DNA from: an uncultured Phycisphaerales bacterium
GTDB lineage: Bacteria; Planctomycetota; Phycisphaerae; Tepidisphaerales; Tepidisphaeraceae
Length of the DNA stretch: 64,000 bases
Assembly (NCBI GenBank): GCA_963758525.1
Contig: CAVWVQ010000003.1
Coordinates: 3,264,001 to 3,328,000 of the forward strand
Direction of reading: 5' to 3'
Positions 3,601 to 11,971 of the stretch are shown here, piece by piece. The position numbers were made by a program, and so were the translations under genes. The notes under the pieces are model-generated. The model made no database searches and was not told the DNA's origin. It saw nothing but the letters and a program-made list of their open reading frames with translations. Numbering within the stretch: the first letter of the stretch is position 1; the number at the start of each line of letters is the position of its first letter.

Positions 3601-4731
3601 CTACTCCTGCATAGACTCGACGTCGATCCCATTCTCGATCAGCCAGTCGCGGTACGCGAAGGGGGAGATCTCGCTCGGCTTGATCTCGCTGCGGCCGCCC
3701 CAGAAGACGTTGGTGTAACTCACGGGAATGCCGATCGAGGCGAGGTGCTCGTCGATCGCTCGTTTGTGGGAGAGCACCACATCCTTGTCAGTGCCGTGGG
3801 CGACGCCCATGATGTTGACGTTGTTGAACTCGGGGCCGCCCTCGCGCCAATAGGCGTGGGTCATGATGTGGAATCGGCCCACTTGCCGGCCGGTTTCAAT
3901 TTCGCGACCGGCGGGGACTGCCCAATGGAACAGGGCGTTAAATTTCGTCACGCGCTCGCCGGTGGTCAGCGGCTTAACGTGTTCGAGAAACGTCGAAAAT
4001 CGGCCGATCACGCGGCGCTCGTTCAGGCCCTTCGCCACTTCCTGAAACACGCTGAGCGGCACGCCGGCTTCCGCGGCACGCGGCGCCCAGAGATTCGGCT
4101 GAATCTCGTCAGCCTCGAATTCCCGTTTTAGCGACATCAGCACACGCCATTCCAGATCGGTCAGCTCCACGATGTTGGTGTCGAGCACTTCCGCCAGCTC
4201 GTCGGACTTGCTCCCCGGCTCCATGCCCCGCCGGCGCACGTGGCCGACGCCCAGTGCGAACAACCGCTTGGCGGGCATGAGCCGATAGTGCTCCGCGCCG
4301 GTCAGCCGCATCAGCACGTCGGCGTGCCGCGACAACGAAAATCCCTGGGGAACTTTCAGCGTGGTCCAGAGCCGGTATTTTGAGCCGGCGGTCTGCTGGT
4401 CCGTCGAACGAATCACGACATGCCCGGAAGATGGATCGCGCTGGAACATGAAGTCGAACGCCGCGGACAGTTTCTCCGGCGGGACCTGCCAGGCGACCAG
4501 CGCGCCGCGGGCGAGATTCGTCGCCATCAGTGTCTGACGGACCCGGCGGATTGTTCCCGCGCGCAGCATCGCCGCGATCCGTTCGCGCACCGTCGCCTCA
4601 TCGAGATCGGCCTGTTTCGCGATCTGCCCGATCGGATCGGGCTGGAACCCCTGCAGTTTGTCCTCGGAGATGGAGAGGATTCGGGCGTTGATCGGATCGT
4701 CCGTGGCGATGGGAAGGGATAGAGTGTTCAC
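3601..4731 (-). CDS. Lrp/AsnC-fold two-domain protein, siroheme decarboxylase AhbA/AhbB (NirDL)-like fusion
   Basis: Two HTH+AsnC-type repeats (G.IRR / VIGRF), HAYWR (HxYxR) and MGVAHG motifs; GTG start. Confidence 0.7.
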   Translation of the reverse strand: MNTLSLPIATDDPINARILSISEDKLQGFQPDPIGQIAKQADLDEATVRERIAAMLRAGTIRRVRQTLMATNLARGALVAWQVPPEKLSAAFDFMFQRDPSSGHVVIRSTDQQTAGSKYRLWTTLKVPQGFSLSRHADVLMRLTGAEHYRLMPAKRLFALGVGHVRRRGMEPGSKSDELAEVLDTNIVELTDLEWRVLMSLKREFEADEIQPNLWAPRAAEAGVPLSVFQEVAKGLNERRVIGRFSTFLEHVKPLTTGERVTKFNALFHWAVPAGREIETGRQVGRFHIMTHAYWREGGPEFNNVNIMGVAHGTDKDVVLSHKRAIDEHLASIGIPVSYTNVFWGGRSEIKPSEISPFAYRDWLIENGIDVESMQE

Positions 4732-6266: not shown

Positions 6267-7149
6267 ATGAGTGAATTGCGGACACCTGCGATTGGCGCGC
6301 CACTGGTCGAATCGCACGCGGTCTGCCGTCACTGCTGCTACGACCTCCACGGCTTGCCCGCGGACGGGCGGTGTCCGGAATGTGGAAGGCAAATCGCATT
6401 ATCACTTCGAGAAGAGCTGTTAGTCTTTGCTGATCCGCTATGGATAGCATCACTCCTGCGCGGCGTGCGTCTGCTGCTCATCGGCGTGGGTCTGGCGGCT
6501 CTGCTGTTTCTCGTCTCATTGCCGATTGCTGCCTCGTCATCGGACCGAACAACAAGCACGCTTCTTTGCGCCTCAGCCGCGTGCATGGTCGCTTGGTTTA
6601 GCTATGGCGGCTGGCTGCTTTCGGTACGCGATCCATCGGGCCGTGGCGAACACGAATACGGAAGATCGCGGAAGCTCACGAGATGGGCCCTCTGCATCGG
6701 AGCCCTGCACGGGTTCCTCGACTGCATTGTGATCTACACGGGTGATCGGTGGCCCAGCGAGGTGCTGAACGCCATCTTTATCGAAGCCGCCGTTGCTCAG
6801 CTCATTGGGATCACGCTCTTTGTCGCTCATCTGGATTACCTGCAGAAGCTGCTCTTGCGCATCCCATCACAAGCTGTCGAACACCGCAGGGTTCCTCAAA
6901 TCGATGATTCCGGCGCTGTGGCTGTGTGCGCTGATTATAGGTTTTCTGGGAATTGTGAGCCGTTGGAACGATTCAGAGTTCGGAGGCGCGAAAATATTCT
7001 TCGGGTGGGCGCTGGTCGTTGCGTGTTTCTCGCTCCCCGTACTGTTGATCTATCTGATCTTTCTCGTGCGGCTGGAGCGATGTCTGAGCCGAGCGGCTCG
7101 TCAGGTGTGCGTCAGCGGGAAGGCCGCAGCCGGATCGGCAAAGCCATGA
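6267..7149 (+). CDS. Zn-ribbon (CxxCxYxLxGL..CPECG) multi-pass membrane protein, copy 1; frameshift near 6875
   Basis: N-terminal Cys cluster and hydrophobic helices. The C-terminus lies in the frame of ORF 6793..7149 (AGFLKSMIPALW…), matching AGFLKVAISLVW in copy 2. Confidence 0.75.
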
Positions 7150-8105
7150 GTGAGTTGCGGACACCTGCGATTGGCGCGCTACTGGTGGAATCTCACGCGG
7201 TCTGCCGTCACTGCTGCTACGACCTCCACGGCTTGCCCGCGGACGGGCGGTGTCCGGAATGCGGTTCGGCGGTGGCGTCGTCGCTGGGGGAAAGCCTGCT
7301 GAAATTTGCAGACCCGCGCTGGCTCGCGTCGCTCGTATGCGGTGCGCGCATGTGGCTGACGGGTCTGCTGCTGGGCGTTGTGACGGTGGTCTTCGGCATT
7401 GTGTCCAATTCCGTATTTCTGTGGAACGGCGCGAGCCGTTATTTCTGTCTCTTCGTCGGGTTCATCATCGCCTGGTGCGCGGCGGGCGGCTGGCTGCTTT
7501 CAAAGCCGGACCCCGCCGGATCGGGCGAAAGGGAATACGGAAGAGTTCGCAAGATTGCGCGGTTGGCTTTGCTGCTGGGCGCGCTGCAGGGGTGCGTGGA
7601 TGTCGCGGCGATCTACCCGAATGCGCCGTTCTGGCTTACCGGACGAATATTCTTGGAAACTGCGCTGCGCAGATCATCGGCGTCGTCGGAGCCTTCGCCC
7701 ACCTGCAATATCTACAGATGCTCACTGCGGAGCGCCGACCGAACCATCACAGACGCGGCGGGATTCCTCAAGGTTGCGATCAGCCTCGTTTGGTCTCTTC
7801 TCTACCTCCTGACACTGCTCACGATTTTGCAGGAACGGTCTTACTTTCACGTGCCGGAGGAAGTGCTGGCGTGTTTCGCGATGATCGATTTGCTCCTGGG
7901 CGGCCTGTTCACGCTGTTCTACCTGTTTTTTCTCTACGCGCTGGCTTCGGCGCTCGCCGGCGAGCTTCGTGAGGCGCGACGGTTGCGGACATTACCCCGA
8001 ATCGACTTCGGATGCATCAATCAACTGGAGCATATGACCGAACAATCAGAAGCAGAACAGACGCCGGCGCAAACTGCAGAGAGCGAAGATCATCCTCCCA
8101 GGTAG
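7146..8105 (+). CDS. Zn-ribbon multi-pass membrane protein, copy 2 (paralog); short out-of-frame stretch ~7665-7735
   Basis: ATGA overlap with the copy 1 stop; same N-terminus. The alternative frame gives AAQIIGVVGAFAHLQYLQ, matching copy 1 VAQLIGITLFVAHLDYLQ. Confidence 0.75.
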   Translation: MSELRTPAIGALLVESHAVCRHCCYDLHGLPADGRCPECGSAVASSLGESLLKFADPRWLASLVCGARMWLTGLLLGVVTVVFGIVSNSVFLWNGASRYFCLFVGFIIAWCAAGGWLLSKPDPAGSGEREYGRVRKIARLALLLGALQGCVDVAAIYPNAPFWLTGRIFLETALRRSSASSEPSPTCNIYRCSLRSADRTITDAAGFLKVAISLVWSLLYLLTLLTILQERSYFHVPEEVLACFAMIDLLLGGLFTLFYLFFLYALASALAGELREARRLRTLPRIDFGCINQLEHMTEQSEAEQTPAQTAESEDHPPR

Positions 8106-8995
8106 GCTTTCTTCACATCGGGATGATGCAGCAGATTTTTCGCGGTGTCGGTGAGCAACACCTCGCCGGTTTGGAGGACGTAGCCGCGATGGGCGATGGC
8201 AAGGGCCATGTGGGCGTTCTGCTCGACGAGGAAGACGGTCGTGCCGGCGGCGTTGATCTCGCGGATGATCTGAAAGATTTTGCGCACAATCAGCGGTGCG
8301 AGGCCGAGGGAAGGTTCATCGAGCAGGAGCAGCTTGGGATGGGCCATCAGGGCCCGGCCGATGGCGAGCATTTGCTGTTCGCCGCCGCTGAGCGTGCCGC
8401 CGCGCTGGGTGGTGCGCTCGGCTAAGACCGGGAAGAGGGCGTAACAACGATCCAGATCGGTCTGCAACTGCGGGCGCGATGTCTGCTGGTATGCGCCGAG
8501 GAGCAGATTTTCGCGAACGGTCAGGTCGGGGAAAATCTGCCGGCCTTCGGGAACGTGGCTGATGCCGAGCCGAACGATTTCATGCGCCGCAAGCGCCGCG
8601 AGATCTGCTCCGCTTCGCAGTTTGGAGGGAGCGTATCGCACTTCCGCGGGGGCGTCGGGAGAAGATGCTGGCTCCACGAGCGTGCGCGAATTTTCGGGCG
8701 GCACATTGTGGTGCGGGCTTCCAGCCTGCAATTCCGGTCGTGCAAGCGCAGTTCGTTCCTTCTCGCCCAGAAATTCGCCAACGCCCGGGTCGAATGATGG
8801 GCCGTTCGCGTTCCATCGCATCTCGCCGGCGGTGGGGCGCAGCAGACCGCTGATGGTTCGCAGGAGCGTGGTTTTGCCGGCTCCGTTGGAGCCGATGAGC
8901 GCGACGATTTCTCCCCGGTCGATCTTCAACGAGATGCCGTGCAGCGCTTTGATCGAGCCGTAGGCGACGTGGAGGTTGTCGATCCTGAGAAGCAC
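8090..8995 (-). CDS. livF: Branched-chain amino acid ABC ATPase LivF with ~67-aa in-frame insertion
   Basis: GSNGAGKTT, HVPEGRQIF, LSGGEQQMLAIGRALM, LLLDEPSLGLAP, LVEQNA, terminal AYLGG. Confidence 0.92.
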   Translation of the reverse strand: MLLRIDNLHVAYGSIKALHGISLKIDRGEIVALIGSNGAGKTTLLRTISGLLRPTAGEMRWNANGPSFDPGVGEFLGEKERTALARPELQAGSPHHNVPPENSRTLVEPASSPDAPAEVRYAPSKLRSGADLAALAAHEIVRLGISHVPEGRQIFPDLTVRENLLLGAYQQTSRPQLQTDLDRCYALFPVLAERTTQRGGTLSGGEQQMLAIGRALMAHPKLLLLDEPSLGLAPLIVRKIFQIIREINAAGTTVFLVEQNAHMALAIAHRGYVLQTGEVLLTDTAKNLLHHPDVKKAYLGG

Positions 8996-9014: not shown

Positions 9015-9195
9015 TCAATCCGAATGACGAAACCCCAAACCGGAATCAATTGCTCTGCTGAAATCCTCTCGCCGTCGCTTGTTTTCCCCCTCCCCTGGTA
9101 CTCCGGAGCGGGGTTGGGGTGGGGGTTTGCCGGGCGAACGACAAGGATTTCAGCAGAGCAGAATCAAATCCGATTGTCGAATGCCCGAGTGACGG
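9015..9195. repeat. Composite repeat tract (CGAATGACGAA family plus CCCCTCCCCTGGTACTCC copy 2)
   Basis: cgaatgacgaaaccccaaaccggaatcaa resembles 961-989; 18-nt core at 9087-9104. Confidence 0.7.
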
Positions 9196-9206
9196 AATTC
9201 GTAGAT

Positions 9207-9727
9207 TCACGAGTTCAACGCGGCCAACGCCAGATCGAGATAGGCGCCGTTAATCAGGTCAGCGGGACGAATCTCTAACTGAGTCATCAGCCGACGGGCT
9301 ATCTGCTCTCCCTGCGGCTCGGTTTGCTCTGGGCGGAGCACGACTTCCAGCTCGATAAAGTCTCCAAGACCCTCGACACGGTCGAAGTGAATGCGAGTCT
9401 GGCCGGCGAAGTAGACCGTGCGCTGCTTCCGGATTTCGCCGCGAACGCCCAGCGCGGCAATCAGGATCCGCGCAACGCGGCGGGCTCAGTGGTCTCAACG
9501 AGGGAGAAGTGGCTGGACTTGGGGCCGGCGATGTCCTCGCGGTCGTAATGAATCAGTTGGCCCCTTTCGGTGCTGAGTTGGCGCAGCTTCAATCGTCCGG
9601 ACGGCGCGAGGAAAAACGTATCGACCTGATGGAGTGATTCCGCAGGCGCGGTCGCCAGCGCGGCTGCGAGCGCTTCCTGGCGCTGGGGGTCATGGGCTCT
9701 TGCCTTTATTTCTATGTTAACGGGCAT
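9207..9727 (-). CDS. CYTH-domain protein (class IV adenylate cyclase / triphosphate tunnel metalloenzyme); frameshift near 9470
   Basis: NIEIKAR (ExExK), QVDTFF, GRLKLR; after the shift, RKQRTVYFAGQTRIHFDRVEGLGDFIELEVVL…AYLDL. Confidence 0.88.
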
Positions 9728-9731
9728 ATGG

Positions 9732-11121
9732 CTACATCCATTCGAGGCTCTCTGGATAGAAGAACGTTTTGTCCTTCTCCACGCCGGGTTGGGAGAAGGC
9801 ATCGGGATAGACCTGGAGCCAGTGCTTCGCCACGACGATCTGGAGCGGGGCGGTGAGCTCGACGACGCCCGGCTTGCAATTTCCGGCGGCCAATTCGCGC
9901 ATGCAAGCGAACAGTTCGGAGCACGTGCAGTCGAGTATTGCGCCCTGCAGCGGCATATCGAGGAAATCGATCGGCGTTCCATGCTCCAGCACGTAAAAGC
10001 ACTTTCCCGATTCCCTGACCGTGTACCTTTCGATCGGGCATGCGCCGTCGTGCTGAGGCGTGAGATCTTTGATGTCGCACAGCTTCGCCAATCCCTCAAC
10101 GTCAATCTCAATGTTCTTGGATGATGCGCTACAGAGGATGATTCCGTCCTTGAAATCCGGGAGATCGGCGACGCGGATCGATCTTCTGCCGGAGCAGCCC
10201 ATGACAATGTCGGATTCGCGAAGCAGTTGCGCCAGGGGGATCGGGAAGAAGCCCCGGCCATAGGCGAGCATCGTTACGACCGGGTCGATGTCGTAGATAT
10301 CGACGACGGCGTTTCGTCCTTTGAACGCCGTCGCGACTGATTTGCCGATGTTTCCCCATCCCACGACACCGCAGCGCATCCCGTCGAGAATGGAGGACAT
10401 CTGAGTCCGCATGGCCTTTTCAAGGCTATAGACGCACGCGTCGCCAATGAGCGAATCCTCGACGCGCTTGAGTGGTGTGTCCGCCATCGAGAGCACGGGC
10501 ACCCCTAGCGGATTCTTGCGGGCCGCGGCCTGGTAGCGCCAGAGCCCATTTTTGGTGTCTTCGACGCAGCCCTTGAAGTTCGGGCATTTCGCAAGCTCGT
10601 GCGTCCAGTCGGCGAAGTAGCCGCCAACTTCCTGGATGAGCGCCGGGTATTTCACCCGGCTGATGCGCTCGACGGCGAGCTTCCACAGGTCGTTGAGCAT
10701 GAATTCGATGTCGGGCGGAACGTAGACGTCATATCCCTTCGCTTTGAGCAGCGCCACGGTTTTCTGGTCTGCCGAGTAGGAGATCGCGATGACCAGGTCG
10801 ACGGGGTAGACGCTGTTCACCTGCTCGATGAACTCGACCGTCGTCGGCAGAATGTGCTGCAGGATAATCGAGTGCGTATTGTCAGGGTTGCGGGTTTCCG
10901 ACGTCAGCTTCTGCAGTACTTTCAAATGCCCGTCAAGGTCACGCAATCTGCTTGTGCCGGCAGAGGAAGCCGAGGCCACGGCCGGGCCCCGCGGGTTGTC
11001 GGCGCCCAGCGGCCGCGTGGTCTGCGTATCACCTGCGCAGCTCCGTCGCAATGCAGGCAATCATCGCGGACACCATTCCCGCAGCCATAAAATCGCGGCG
11101 ATTGACGTCATGCTTTGTCAT
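9732..11121 (-). CDS. Divergent adenosylhomocysteinase (SAHH)-like NAD-binding protein with twin-arginine signal; frameshift near 11040
   Basis: QHILPTT, QEVGGYF, VEDTKNG, LKRVEDSLIG, Rossmann VVGWGNIGKSVA, DIDP, EIDV. The upstream frame MTKHDVNRRDFMAAGMVSAMIACIA starts at an ATG overlapping the livG stop. Confidence 0.75.
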
Positions 11122-11971
11122 GTTCGCAGCTCCCGAATGGTTTGATCTGGAGTCTGGTCCTCGATGTCCCCCGGCTCTCCAAGATACGCCTCGATCACCT
11201 TCGGATCGCTCCGAATTTCCGGGGGCGTTCCCTCCGCGATGATCTCTCCGTGATCGAGAACGGTGATTCGTTCGCAGACACTCATCACCAGCGTCATGTC
11301 GTGTTCGATCAACAGGATCGCCAGGGAGAATTTGTCGCGGATGAAACGGATGAGGTTCATCAGCTCGATCTTTTCCCGCGGATTCATTCCCGCGGCCGGC
11401 TCGTCGAGGAGCAATACCTGCGGGGATGTCGCCATGCCCGGGCGATTTCCAGCCGGCGCTGATTGCCGTAGGCCAGATTCTTTGCCTGTTCGTTCGATTG
11501 CTGCCGCAGACCGAAGACGTCGAGCAGTTCAAGGGAGTGCTGGTTGATTGCACGTTCGGCGGCGACGTATCCGCCGGTGCGGAGGATGGTGCTCCACAAG
11601 CCGTGAGGATGCCGCATCTGTCCGCCGACGCGAACATTGTCGAGCACGCACAGCTCGCCGAAAAGTCTGATGTTCTGAAATGTCCGGGCGAGGCCGGCAT
11701 GTGCGATCTGGTGCGGGCGCTTGCCATCCAGGCGCTGCCCGTGGAGGCGCACGGACCCGGTGTCTGGCCGATAGATGCCTGTCAGCACGTTGAACGCGGT
11801 GGTTTTGCCCGCGCCGTTCGGCCCGATCAGTCCATGAAGACTTCCCGGCGGAAGCGAGAGATTAAAATTCTGCACGGCCTTGAGTCCGCCGAAGGCGATC
11901 GAGACATTCTGCACTTGGAGCAACGTATTGCTCGCCACGCTCGCCGATTTGTCAGGGAGCACATCATTCAT
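11118..11971 (-). CDS. livG: Branched-chain amino acid ABC ATPase LivG; frameshift near 11435
   Basis: FGGLKAV, GPNGAGKTT, ARTFQNIRLF, LAYGNQRRLEIARA, then LLLDEPAAGMN, IEHDM, VIEAYLG. Confidence 0.92.

Follow-up and report, generated by a model that had tools for sequence, protein, structure and literature searches.

The question raised by this locus is why a gene for a protein resembling S-adenosylhomocysteine (SAH) hydrolase (SAHH, AhcY), preceded by a twin-arginine leader, lies between livG and livF, and what the encoded enzyme does there. The locus occupies positions 9207-11121 of a stretch of 64,000 nucleotides (hereafter the window; positions 3,264,001 to 3,328,000 of contig CAVWVQ010000003.1, assembly GCA_963758525.1) from an uncultured Phycisphaerales bacterium. 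A sequence-only reading of the window had proposed a periplasmic enzyme of altered specificity that could feed the Liv importer, with the adjoining CYTH gene taking care of a nucleotide step. Our analysis confirms the underlying observation and supports an exported enzyme, refined here to a lipoprotein, but gives no support to a Liv/CYTH module.

On the minus strand the order is livJ-livH-livM-livG, leader plus AdoHcyase-like enzyme, CYTH gene and livF, so two co-oriented genes indeed separate livG from livF. The leader starts with an ATG at 11121 that shares the bases ATGA with the livG stop and has a ribosome-binding-like site (GGGAG) 8 nt ahead of it. Its short open reading frame (ORF; 11029-11121) closes at a TGA at 11031-11029 and reads as had been described, with N-R-R-D-F-M at residues 7-12, an apolar h-region and then M-I-A-C, the codon of Cys23 being 11055-11053. 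The enzyme body (9732-11060) comprises a low-complexity linker and an AdoHcyase fold whose active site is rebuilt; its frame runs from 11060 as far as a TAG at 9734-9732 and yields 462 aa counting the leader. In the assembly the leader is off-frame relative to the body. A single frame step (net +1 base or -2 bases) separates the two, as the earlier indel call near 11040 implied, and can be localised to 11063-11029: deletion of any one of 34 bases in this interval restores a 462-codon ORF, and 24 of these deletions retain Cys23. The break is probably an assembly error, because each of the neighbouring genes livM, livG and CYTH contains one frame shift when compared with intact relatives, and breaks were also seen in 6 of 42 conserved genes taken from across the genome (a small sample, which misses livM and includes livG). 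The assembly is indel-noisy.

Evidence that the leader belongs to the enzyme gene comes from relatives. A protein search returned about 66 full-length homologs of the window enzyme (P0001) at 60-75% identity. One of these, P0003, present in both NCBI and Logan, begins with an in-frame leader that shares 12 of 23 residues with the window leader, RRxF and Ala22-Cys23 among them, while the enzyme bodies of the two proteins are only 71% identical. P0001 and P0003 are sisters, with support of 100/98 in IQ-TREE (32 chosen rows, leader columns removed) and 99 in FastTree (149 rows). When the P0003 N-terminus is compared with the 113,917 30-mers that start with Met in the six-frame translation of the genome, the window leader is the best match (score 49, none other within 8 points), and the next Tat-like start scores 17. 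Since the sister protein carries the leader in frame, these comparisons support its assignment to the enzyme gene and favour the joining of leader and SAHH-fold body suggested earlier.

Both leaders fit the general motif for twin-arginine translocation (Tat), Z-R-R-x-phi-phi, as given in PMC13673990, with N-R-R-D-F-M in the window and N-R-R-A-F-L in P0003, each followed by an uncharged h-region. In both a lipobox cysteine (Cys23) comes after the h-region, as matched with a PROSITE-style pattern, and the host genome encodes TatC, Lgt and LspA. Since this type of leader, lipobox Cys23 included, is found in frame in P0003, the window enzyme is a predicted Tat-exported lipoprotein. The twin-arginine leader of the sequence-only reading thus stands, with a lipoprotein type added; the lipobox had gone unnoticed.

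Tat export of an enzyme loaded with NAD is plausible. Precedents are the Tat export of NADP-bound glucose-fructose oxidoreductase (GFOR) of Zymomonas (PMC13673990) and a 3-keto-glycoside oxidoreductase with a Tat signal and tightly bound NAD (bioRxiv 10.1101/2024.03.25.586180). GFOR and the Gfo/Idh/MocA proteins AL3/BT3 share with the proposed enzyme folded export with a trapped nicotinamide cofactor and a 3-keto chemistry that acidifies C2. They differ in having the Gfo/Idh/MocA fold and sugar or glycoside substrates, and the window enzyme is not a member of that group.

Export leaders are rare in the family. A hydropathy screen (rather than SignalP) flagged leaders in three of the 66 close homologs, namely P0003 and P0046 (Tat-like) and P0002 (Sec-like). 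In a mid-distance set of 16 it flagged P0078 (Tat-like) and one doubtful case, and among 117 distant homologs it found no credible export leader. Leader presence requires 3-4 separate changes on a tree of 32 sampled family members. Arginine pairs in other homologs were considered as Tat signals and rejected, as no h-region follows them.

The fold itself is clear at the level of a predicted structure. The AlphaFold model (predicted local distance difference test score, pLDDT, 92) shows a two-domain AdoHcyase fold with a Rossmann NAD site and matches strongly only to SAH hydrolases (Z 35.6, root mean square deviation 3.5 A over 380 residues), the next family reaching Z 17.5. Sequence-based membership is far weaker. 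PF00670 is the sole Pfam match and PF05221 is not found, the AhcY models give 75 bits against a cut-off of 498 (TIGR00936) and 83 against 275 (NF004005), and identity to SAHH is 20-23%. The family forms its own clade, separate from 15 canonical-type proteins. Compared with SAHH (AhcY; TIGR00936, PF05221 plus PF00670; PDB 6gbn, 3x2f, 1li4), the window protein has the whole two-domain fold; it belongs to the AdoHcyase superfamily but lacks residues that define AhcY and AgmF, the angustmycin dehydratase of the SAHH family.

The active site is conserved in part (Lys171, Asp141 and so on refer to P0001; Lys186, Asp131, His301 and so on to SAHH). What serves NAD binding and 3'-oxidation is retained: His42 (SAHH His55), Thr142 (Thr157), Lys171 (Lys186) and the GxGxxG motif. 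SAHH Glu156 is replaced by Asp141, and Asp190 maps to Asp175 with hhalign or to Glu174 with MAFFT. Asp131, assigned to proton handling at C4' in PMC4647836, which sets out the roles of the SAHH active-site residues, has become Val118, and this position is Val, Ile or Leu across the close (67), mid (20) and distant (137) groups. In the same three groups the Gly300-His301-Phe302 gate is replaced by Ser-Ser-Lys/Arg (here Ser286-Ser287-Lys288). The adenine-contact positions (Thr57/Glu59) and the His353 loop are rebuilt. Alignments to canonical AhcY thus agree with the motif calls made by eye, in which His55, Lys186 and GxGxxG were kept while DDGG became EVGG, EETTTG became EDTKNG and GHF became SSK. 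The claim that the canonical C-terminal tail is absent is doubtful for the close subfamily, as 66 of its 67 members end in a conserved tail D-K-x-F-x-[YFH]-P, which distant members do not have. Its Lys404 and Tyr408 have the spacing of SAHH Lys426 and Tyr430, which cover the NAD of the neighbouring subunit; the region was left unaligned by hhalign, and we regard the equivalence as tentative.

Because Asp131 and His301 are lost and the genome also has a normal ahcY, the window enzyme is probably not a SAH hydrolase. Replacement of AhcY by this enzyme was rejected as well, since hosts keep ahcY: the canonical gene occurs in all four named hosts of close homologs (in one of them in two pieces), and it was found in two of five metagenome-assembled genomes of the mid group that were scanned. 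An altered specificity, as first proposed, is therefore probable, whereas a thioether substrate of the SAH or methylthioadenosine (MTA) type is disfavoured by the loss of the Asp131/His301 machinery.

The explanation that we favour, though we rate its chances as a little below even, is that of an AdoHcyase-fold enzyme, probably acquired horizontally and predicted to be exported by Tat with its NAD and anchored to lipid, which would transform the ribose of a nucleoside 5'-monophosphate in a redox-neutral way instead of hydrolysing SAH. The protein would fold around NAD in the cytoplasm, pass through the TatC-dependent route and be lipidated at Cys23 by Lgt and LspA. Bound NAD+ would then oxidise the ribose 3'-OH with the help of Lys171, Thr142, Asp141 and Glu174 or Asp175. 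The resulting 3'-keto intermediate may react at C2', by epimerisation or base release, and be re-reduced, so that no free extracellular NAD would be needed; because free NAD is not available in the periplasm, the protein would have to retain its cofactor and regenerate it in the course of one turnover. A reaction at C2' is suggested because the two residues behind the 4',5' elimination and addition in SAHH, Asp131 and His301, are Val118 and Ser287 here, and it would be the most economical outcome when 3'-oxidation is kept and the 4',5' machinery is gone. A 5'-phosphate would fit the 5' gate, where an acid is lost and Ser-Ser-Lys (286-288) is gained, and the partner enzymes found with relatives all produce or consume nucleoside monophosphates. 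The enzyme gene would sit in the livG-livF interval as a likely passenger insertion that uses the liv promoter, and the CYTH protein would be a likely co-inserted cytoplasmic nucleotide phosphohydrolase rather than an obligate partner.

Several findings weigh against this explanation. Both leaders stay below the cut-off of TIGR01409 (13.5 bits for the window and 14.5 for P0003, against 16.7), and P0003 is the only independent homolog that supports a lipoprotein leader. The large majority of close homologs (63 of 66) have no export leader at all and open with a polar stretch matching the N-terminus of SAHH in alignment. The expectation that homologs would share a twin-arginine leader thus fails for most of them; the main activity of the family would then lie in the cytoplasm, with export perhaps confined to a side branch. 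The interval 11004-11171 is not covered by contigs from three soil runs, so the break is unpolished; read run X1 contained a fraction of 0.14 of the sequence words. The 5'-phosphate and C2' ideas derive from sequence alignment rather than from docking or active-site geometry. Moreover, AgmF requires Asp129 and His299, and loss of both equivalents could mean a dead or binding-only site. Finally, PenG, which a review (PMC12648386) lists as a SAH hydrolase, may belong to this family.

The surroundings of the relatives bear on the substrate. Partners vary from locus to locus and converge on nucleoside monophosphates. NUDIX fusions occur in four of ten long homologs scanned, and HD genes adjoin two close loci (L036, L050). 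Distant members on Lactiplantibacillus plasmids (L094) and a Staphylococcus epidermidis plasmid (L095) sit in cassettes of a major facilitator superfamily (MFS) transporter, an HD phosphohydrolase and the enzyme; L095 adds a phosphoribosyltransferase (PRTase), NUDIX, a pyridoxal phosphate enzyme and a flavin hydroxylase and resembles a nucleoside-analogue biosynthetic cluster. A subgroup at 40% identity has an operon in four distinct loci (L021, L022, L025/L046 and L026) with genes for a HIT-like protein, a cysteine desulfurase-family protein, adenylate kinase and the SAHH-like enzyme, joined in three of the four by an EamA exporter. In L021 the cysteine desulfurase-family protein exceeds the cut-off of TIGR01977. 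The operon resembles a route to a nucleoside that contains sulfur or selenium. As a separate observation, a divergent family member (L053:426-1580) and a more canonical short SAHH homolog (L053:2949-4091) face each other across an MFS gene.

Genes for secreted S1/P1 nuclease or EEP proteins are found in L028 and L017. In addition, four close loci (three of them independent) have the same uncharacterised neighbour of 240-285 aa (L017:7168-7881, L028:756-1586, L030:2535-3344 and L038:755-1609; further cases in L161 and L162), with a Sec-type signal in three. On Bradyrhizobium plasmids this protein directly follows S1/P1 nucleases. It was found in one of 351 Pseudomonadota genomes searched, is absent from the window genome and has no relative on viral contigs. 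Neither Pfam nor Foldseek gave a match. Atlas scored 0.78 to DUF1937-type clusters, the best structure reached Z 5.3, and nucleoside deoxyribosyltransferase structures reached Z 3.4-3.8, a weak resemblance to such enzymes that serves as a lead only. The neighbour is possibly part of an extracellular nucleic-acid scavenging module.

The alternative that survives best, though we consider it rather unlikely, is a family engaged in conflict or signalling, which makes, destroys or senses a modified nucleotide (in anti-phage defence or detoxification of nucleoside antibiotics), exported copies intercepting it outside the cell. In L016, L017, L030, L035, L036 and L041 close homologs do have integrases, transposases and defence-type genes around them, and the family is patchily distributed across phyla. 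Against this, PADLOC 2.0 returned no match at E 0.01 for P0001, P0008 and P0024, the loci L018, L019 and L031 are not islands, and the window copy sits within a housekeeping operon. Mobile replicons gave little: no relative of the enzyme was found on viral contigs, phage records contained weak partial matches only, and plasmids held no close-family member (best identity 24-29%). A literature search found nothing linking AdoHcyase with phage defence. A conflict role and the favoured nucleotide-ribose enzyme are not exclusive, and the chemistry could be the same.

We think it unlikely that the protein is an accessory hydrolase of SAH or S-inosylhomocysteine, or an AgmF-type dehydratase, in which the catalytic residues are rearranged yet equivalent, with Glu117 or Glu174 taking the part of Asp131. 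The complete SAHH fold over 380 residues, the retention of His55, Lys186 and the invariant acids, the methyltransferases close to some members and the description of PenG as a SAH hydrolase speak for it, whereas the substitutions of Asp131 and of Gly-His-Phe extend over about 220 family members, the hosts keep their canonical ahcY and SAH is a cytoplasmic by-product. The comparison with AgmF is also unfavourable. According to PMC8599513, AgmF needs His56, Asp129, Lys184, Asp188 and His299, so that equivalents of the residues lost here are essential in that enzyme. AgmF resembles the proposed enzyme in its SAHH fold, in not using SAH as substrate, in recycling bound NAD on a nucleoside sugar and in its PRTase and phosphatase partners; it differs in that the window enzyme is without equivalents of Asp129 and His299, a separation made on published residues and not by direct sequence comparison. 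PenD and PenG of the pentostatin-vidarabine (pen) cluster offer a further likeness: these SAHH homologs come from a cluster that modifies nucleoside sugars and are encoded next to an MFS exporter, much as plasmid members of the family combine MFS, phosphohydrolase and enzyme. They differ in being reported as SAH hydrolases. A homolog search from a streptomycete member showed no Pen name among the 120 matches listed of 914.

About equally improbable is that the frame break is real, the gene then decaying or giving a leaderless cytoplasmic product from GTG 10979 or TTG 11060. Such a state would agree with the repair being unconfirmed by reads, with a lineage-specific accessory gene and with the leaderless state of most homologs. 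It agrees less well with the same kind of break in three neighbouring genes, livG and livM among them, with a body that is free of stops and retains all family-invariant residues, and with the automatically called GTG start at 10979, before which there is no ribosome-binding-like site.

Least probable by far is that an exported enzyme processing SAH, MTA or nucleosides feeds the Liv importer while CYTH performs a nucleotide step, the genes having been recruited to the operon for that purpose: the tight spacing, the host-like GC content at third codon positions (GC3 = 0.78) and two distant homologs with a CYTH gene nearby would fit, yet liv genes are missing beside the enzyme at all 43 homolog loci (35 of them distinct, the flanks often being short), a close homolog is present in none of 140 other genomes of the bacterial family and none of 400 sampled genomes of the phylum, none of 24 fetched loci of CYTH orthologs lies next to liv or the enzyme, and LivJ is an ordinary branched-chain-type binding protein.

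In the bacterial family livG (11118-11971 in the window, with a frame break near 11435) and livF (8090-8995) are both present in 104 genomes; they are adjacent in 77, separated by a wider gap in 16 (including the window genome) and apart or on different contigs in 11. These family-genome counts include one unpublished genome (G004), also the source of one canonical reference, and no conclusion rests on it. Twelve of the 15 other wide gaps were inspected, and six contain unrelated genes: a 23S-IVP protein (three times), a GIY-YIG protein, a PMT-type glycosyltransferase and a multi-gene insert. These loci (L114, L115, L117, L118, L120 and L121) mark the livG-livF junction as a recurrent insertion site. 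In both congeners livF is located elsewhere with different neighbours, and in the single-contig genome G140 it is likewise detached from livJHMG. The place of the enzyme in the liv operon is thus most likely incidental, and the SAHH-like/CYTH/liv linkage was found only in the window genome. Within livF, at 8600-8800, about 65 residues of low complexity are inserted in frame into the ATPase domain; congeners have a shorter insertion there.

The CYTH gene (9207-9727) starts with an ATG at 9727, 4 nt after the enzyme stop as had been noted, and is itself frame-broken near 9470. It is CyaB-like: one half of the split gene scores 30 bits and an intact 65% ortholog 42 bits with TIGR00318, below the cut-off of 58. 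CYTH genes of this type occur in 39 of 140 genomes of the bacterial family. They flank the enzyme at none of 17 distinct close loci and at two of 18 more distant ones, in one case as a co-oriented CYTH-guanylate kinase fusion upstream of the enzyme (L056) and in the other as a convergent gene. As the CYTH protein has no signal peptide, it would occupy a different compartment from the exported enzyme. The link is loose, and the CYTH-coupled step that had been proposed is not supported.

About 210 bp separate CYTH from livF. Between them lies a 110-bp element (9051-9160, no strand assigned) with perfect 17-nt terminal inverted repeats, resembling a miniature inverted-repeat transposable element or a repetitive extragenic palindrome. 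A second copy, 98% identical, is found in the genome at C3:2955984, and an inner purine-rich repeat has about 200 genome matches. Foreign composition of the insert was sought by GC and GC3, and nothing marked was found; a scan for promoters and terminators gave no signal exceeding shuffled controls. Elsewhere in the window, 3601-4731 encodes a fused AhbA-AhbB-like protein (siroheme decarboxylase), followed by a glyoxalase-family gene, and the single long ORF at 6267-8105 apparently arises from a tandem duplicate of a gene for a zinc-ribbon membrane protein, the two copies probably being joined through assembly frame breaks.

The literature search found no account of this family or of an exported SAHH-fold protein, and nothing linking twin-arginine with a periplasmic SAH hydrolase; most subscription journals and the supplementary network of AgmF lay outside the search. 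A 2026 review of SAHH (PMC13406329) does not mention signal peptide, periplasm, secreted, PenG or AgmF.

SAHH is usually treated as a uniform cytoplasmic housekeeping enzyme. An exported, lipid-anchored member argues for redox-neutral chemistry with a trapped cofactor and hence for a short, directly testable list of reactions. A broader and fairly doubtful extension is that a large branch of the SAHH superfamily consists of self-sufficient NAD enzymes for nucleoside monophosphates, whose ribose they would epimerise or cleave, that they moved outside the cytoplasm several times independently (in the window protein as a Tat-exported lipoprotein), and that they act there on nucleotides freed by secreted nucleases or on nucleoside antibiotics. 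If that is true, this would be the first extracytoplasmic enzyme with the SAHH fold, and it would bring a new reaction to this fold. An actinobacterial subfamily of 373 aa from the same clade comprises at least 914 clusters, the named ones nearly all annotated as adenosylhomocysteinase, and the one member that was aligned (L096:5920-7041) is without Asp131 and His301. The family carries this name in public records although it is without the residues for that reaction, and hundreds of proteins are therefore probably misannotated. An epimerase or lyase for nucleotide ribose would be relevant to the ways in which bacteria produce or neutralise arabino-type nucleosides, and it could serve as a useful biocatalyst.

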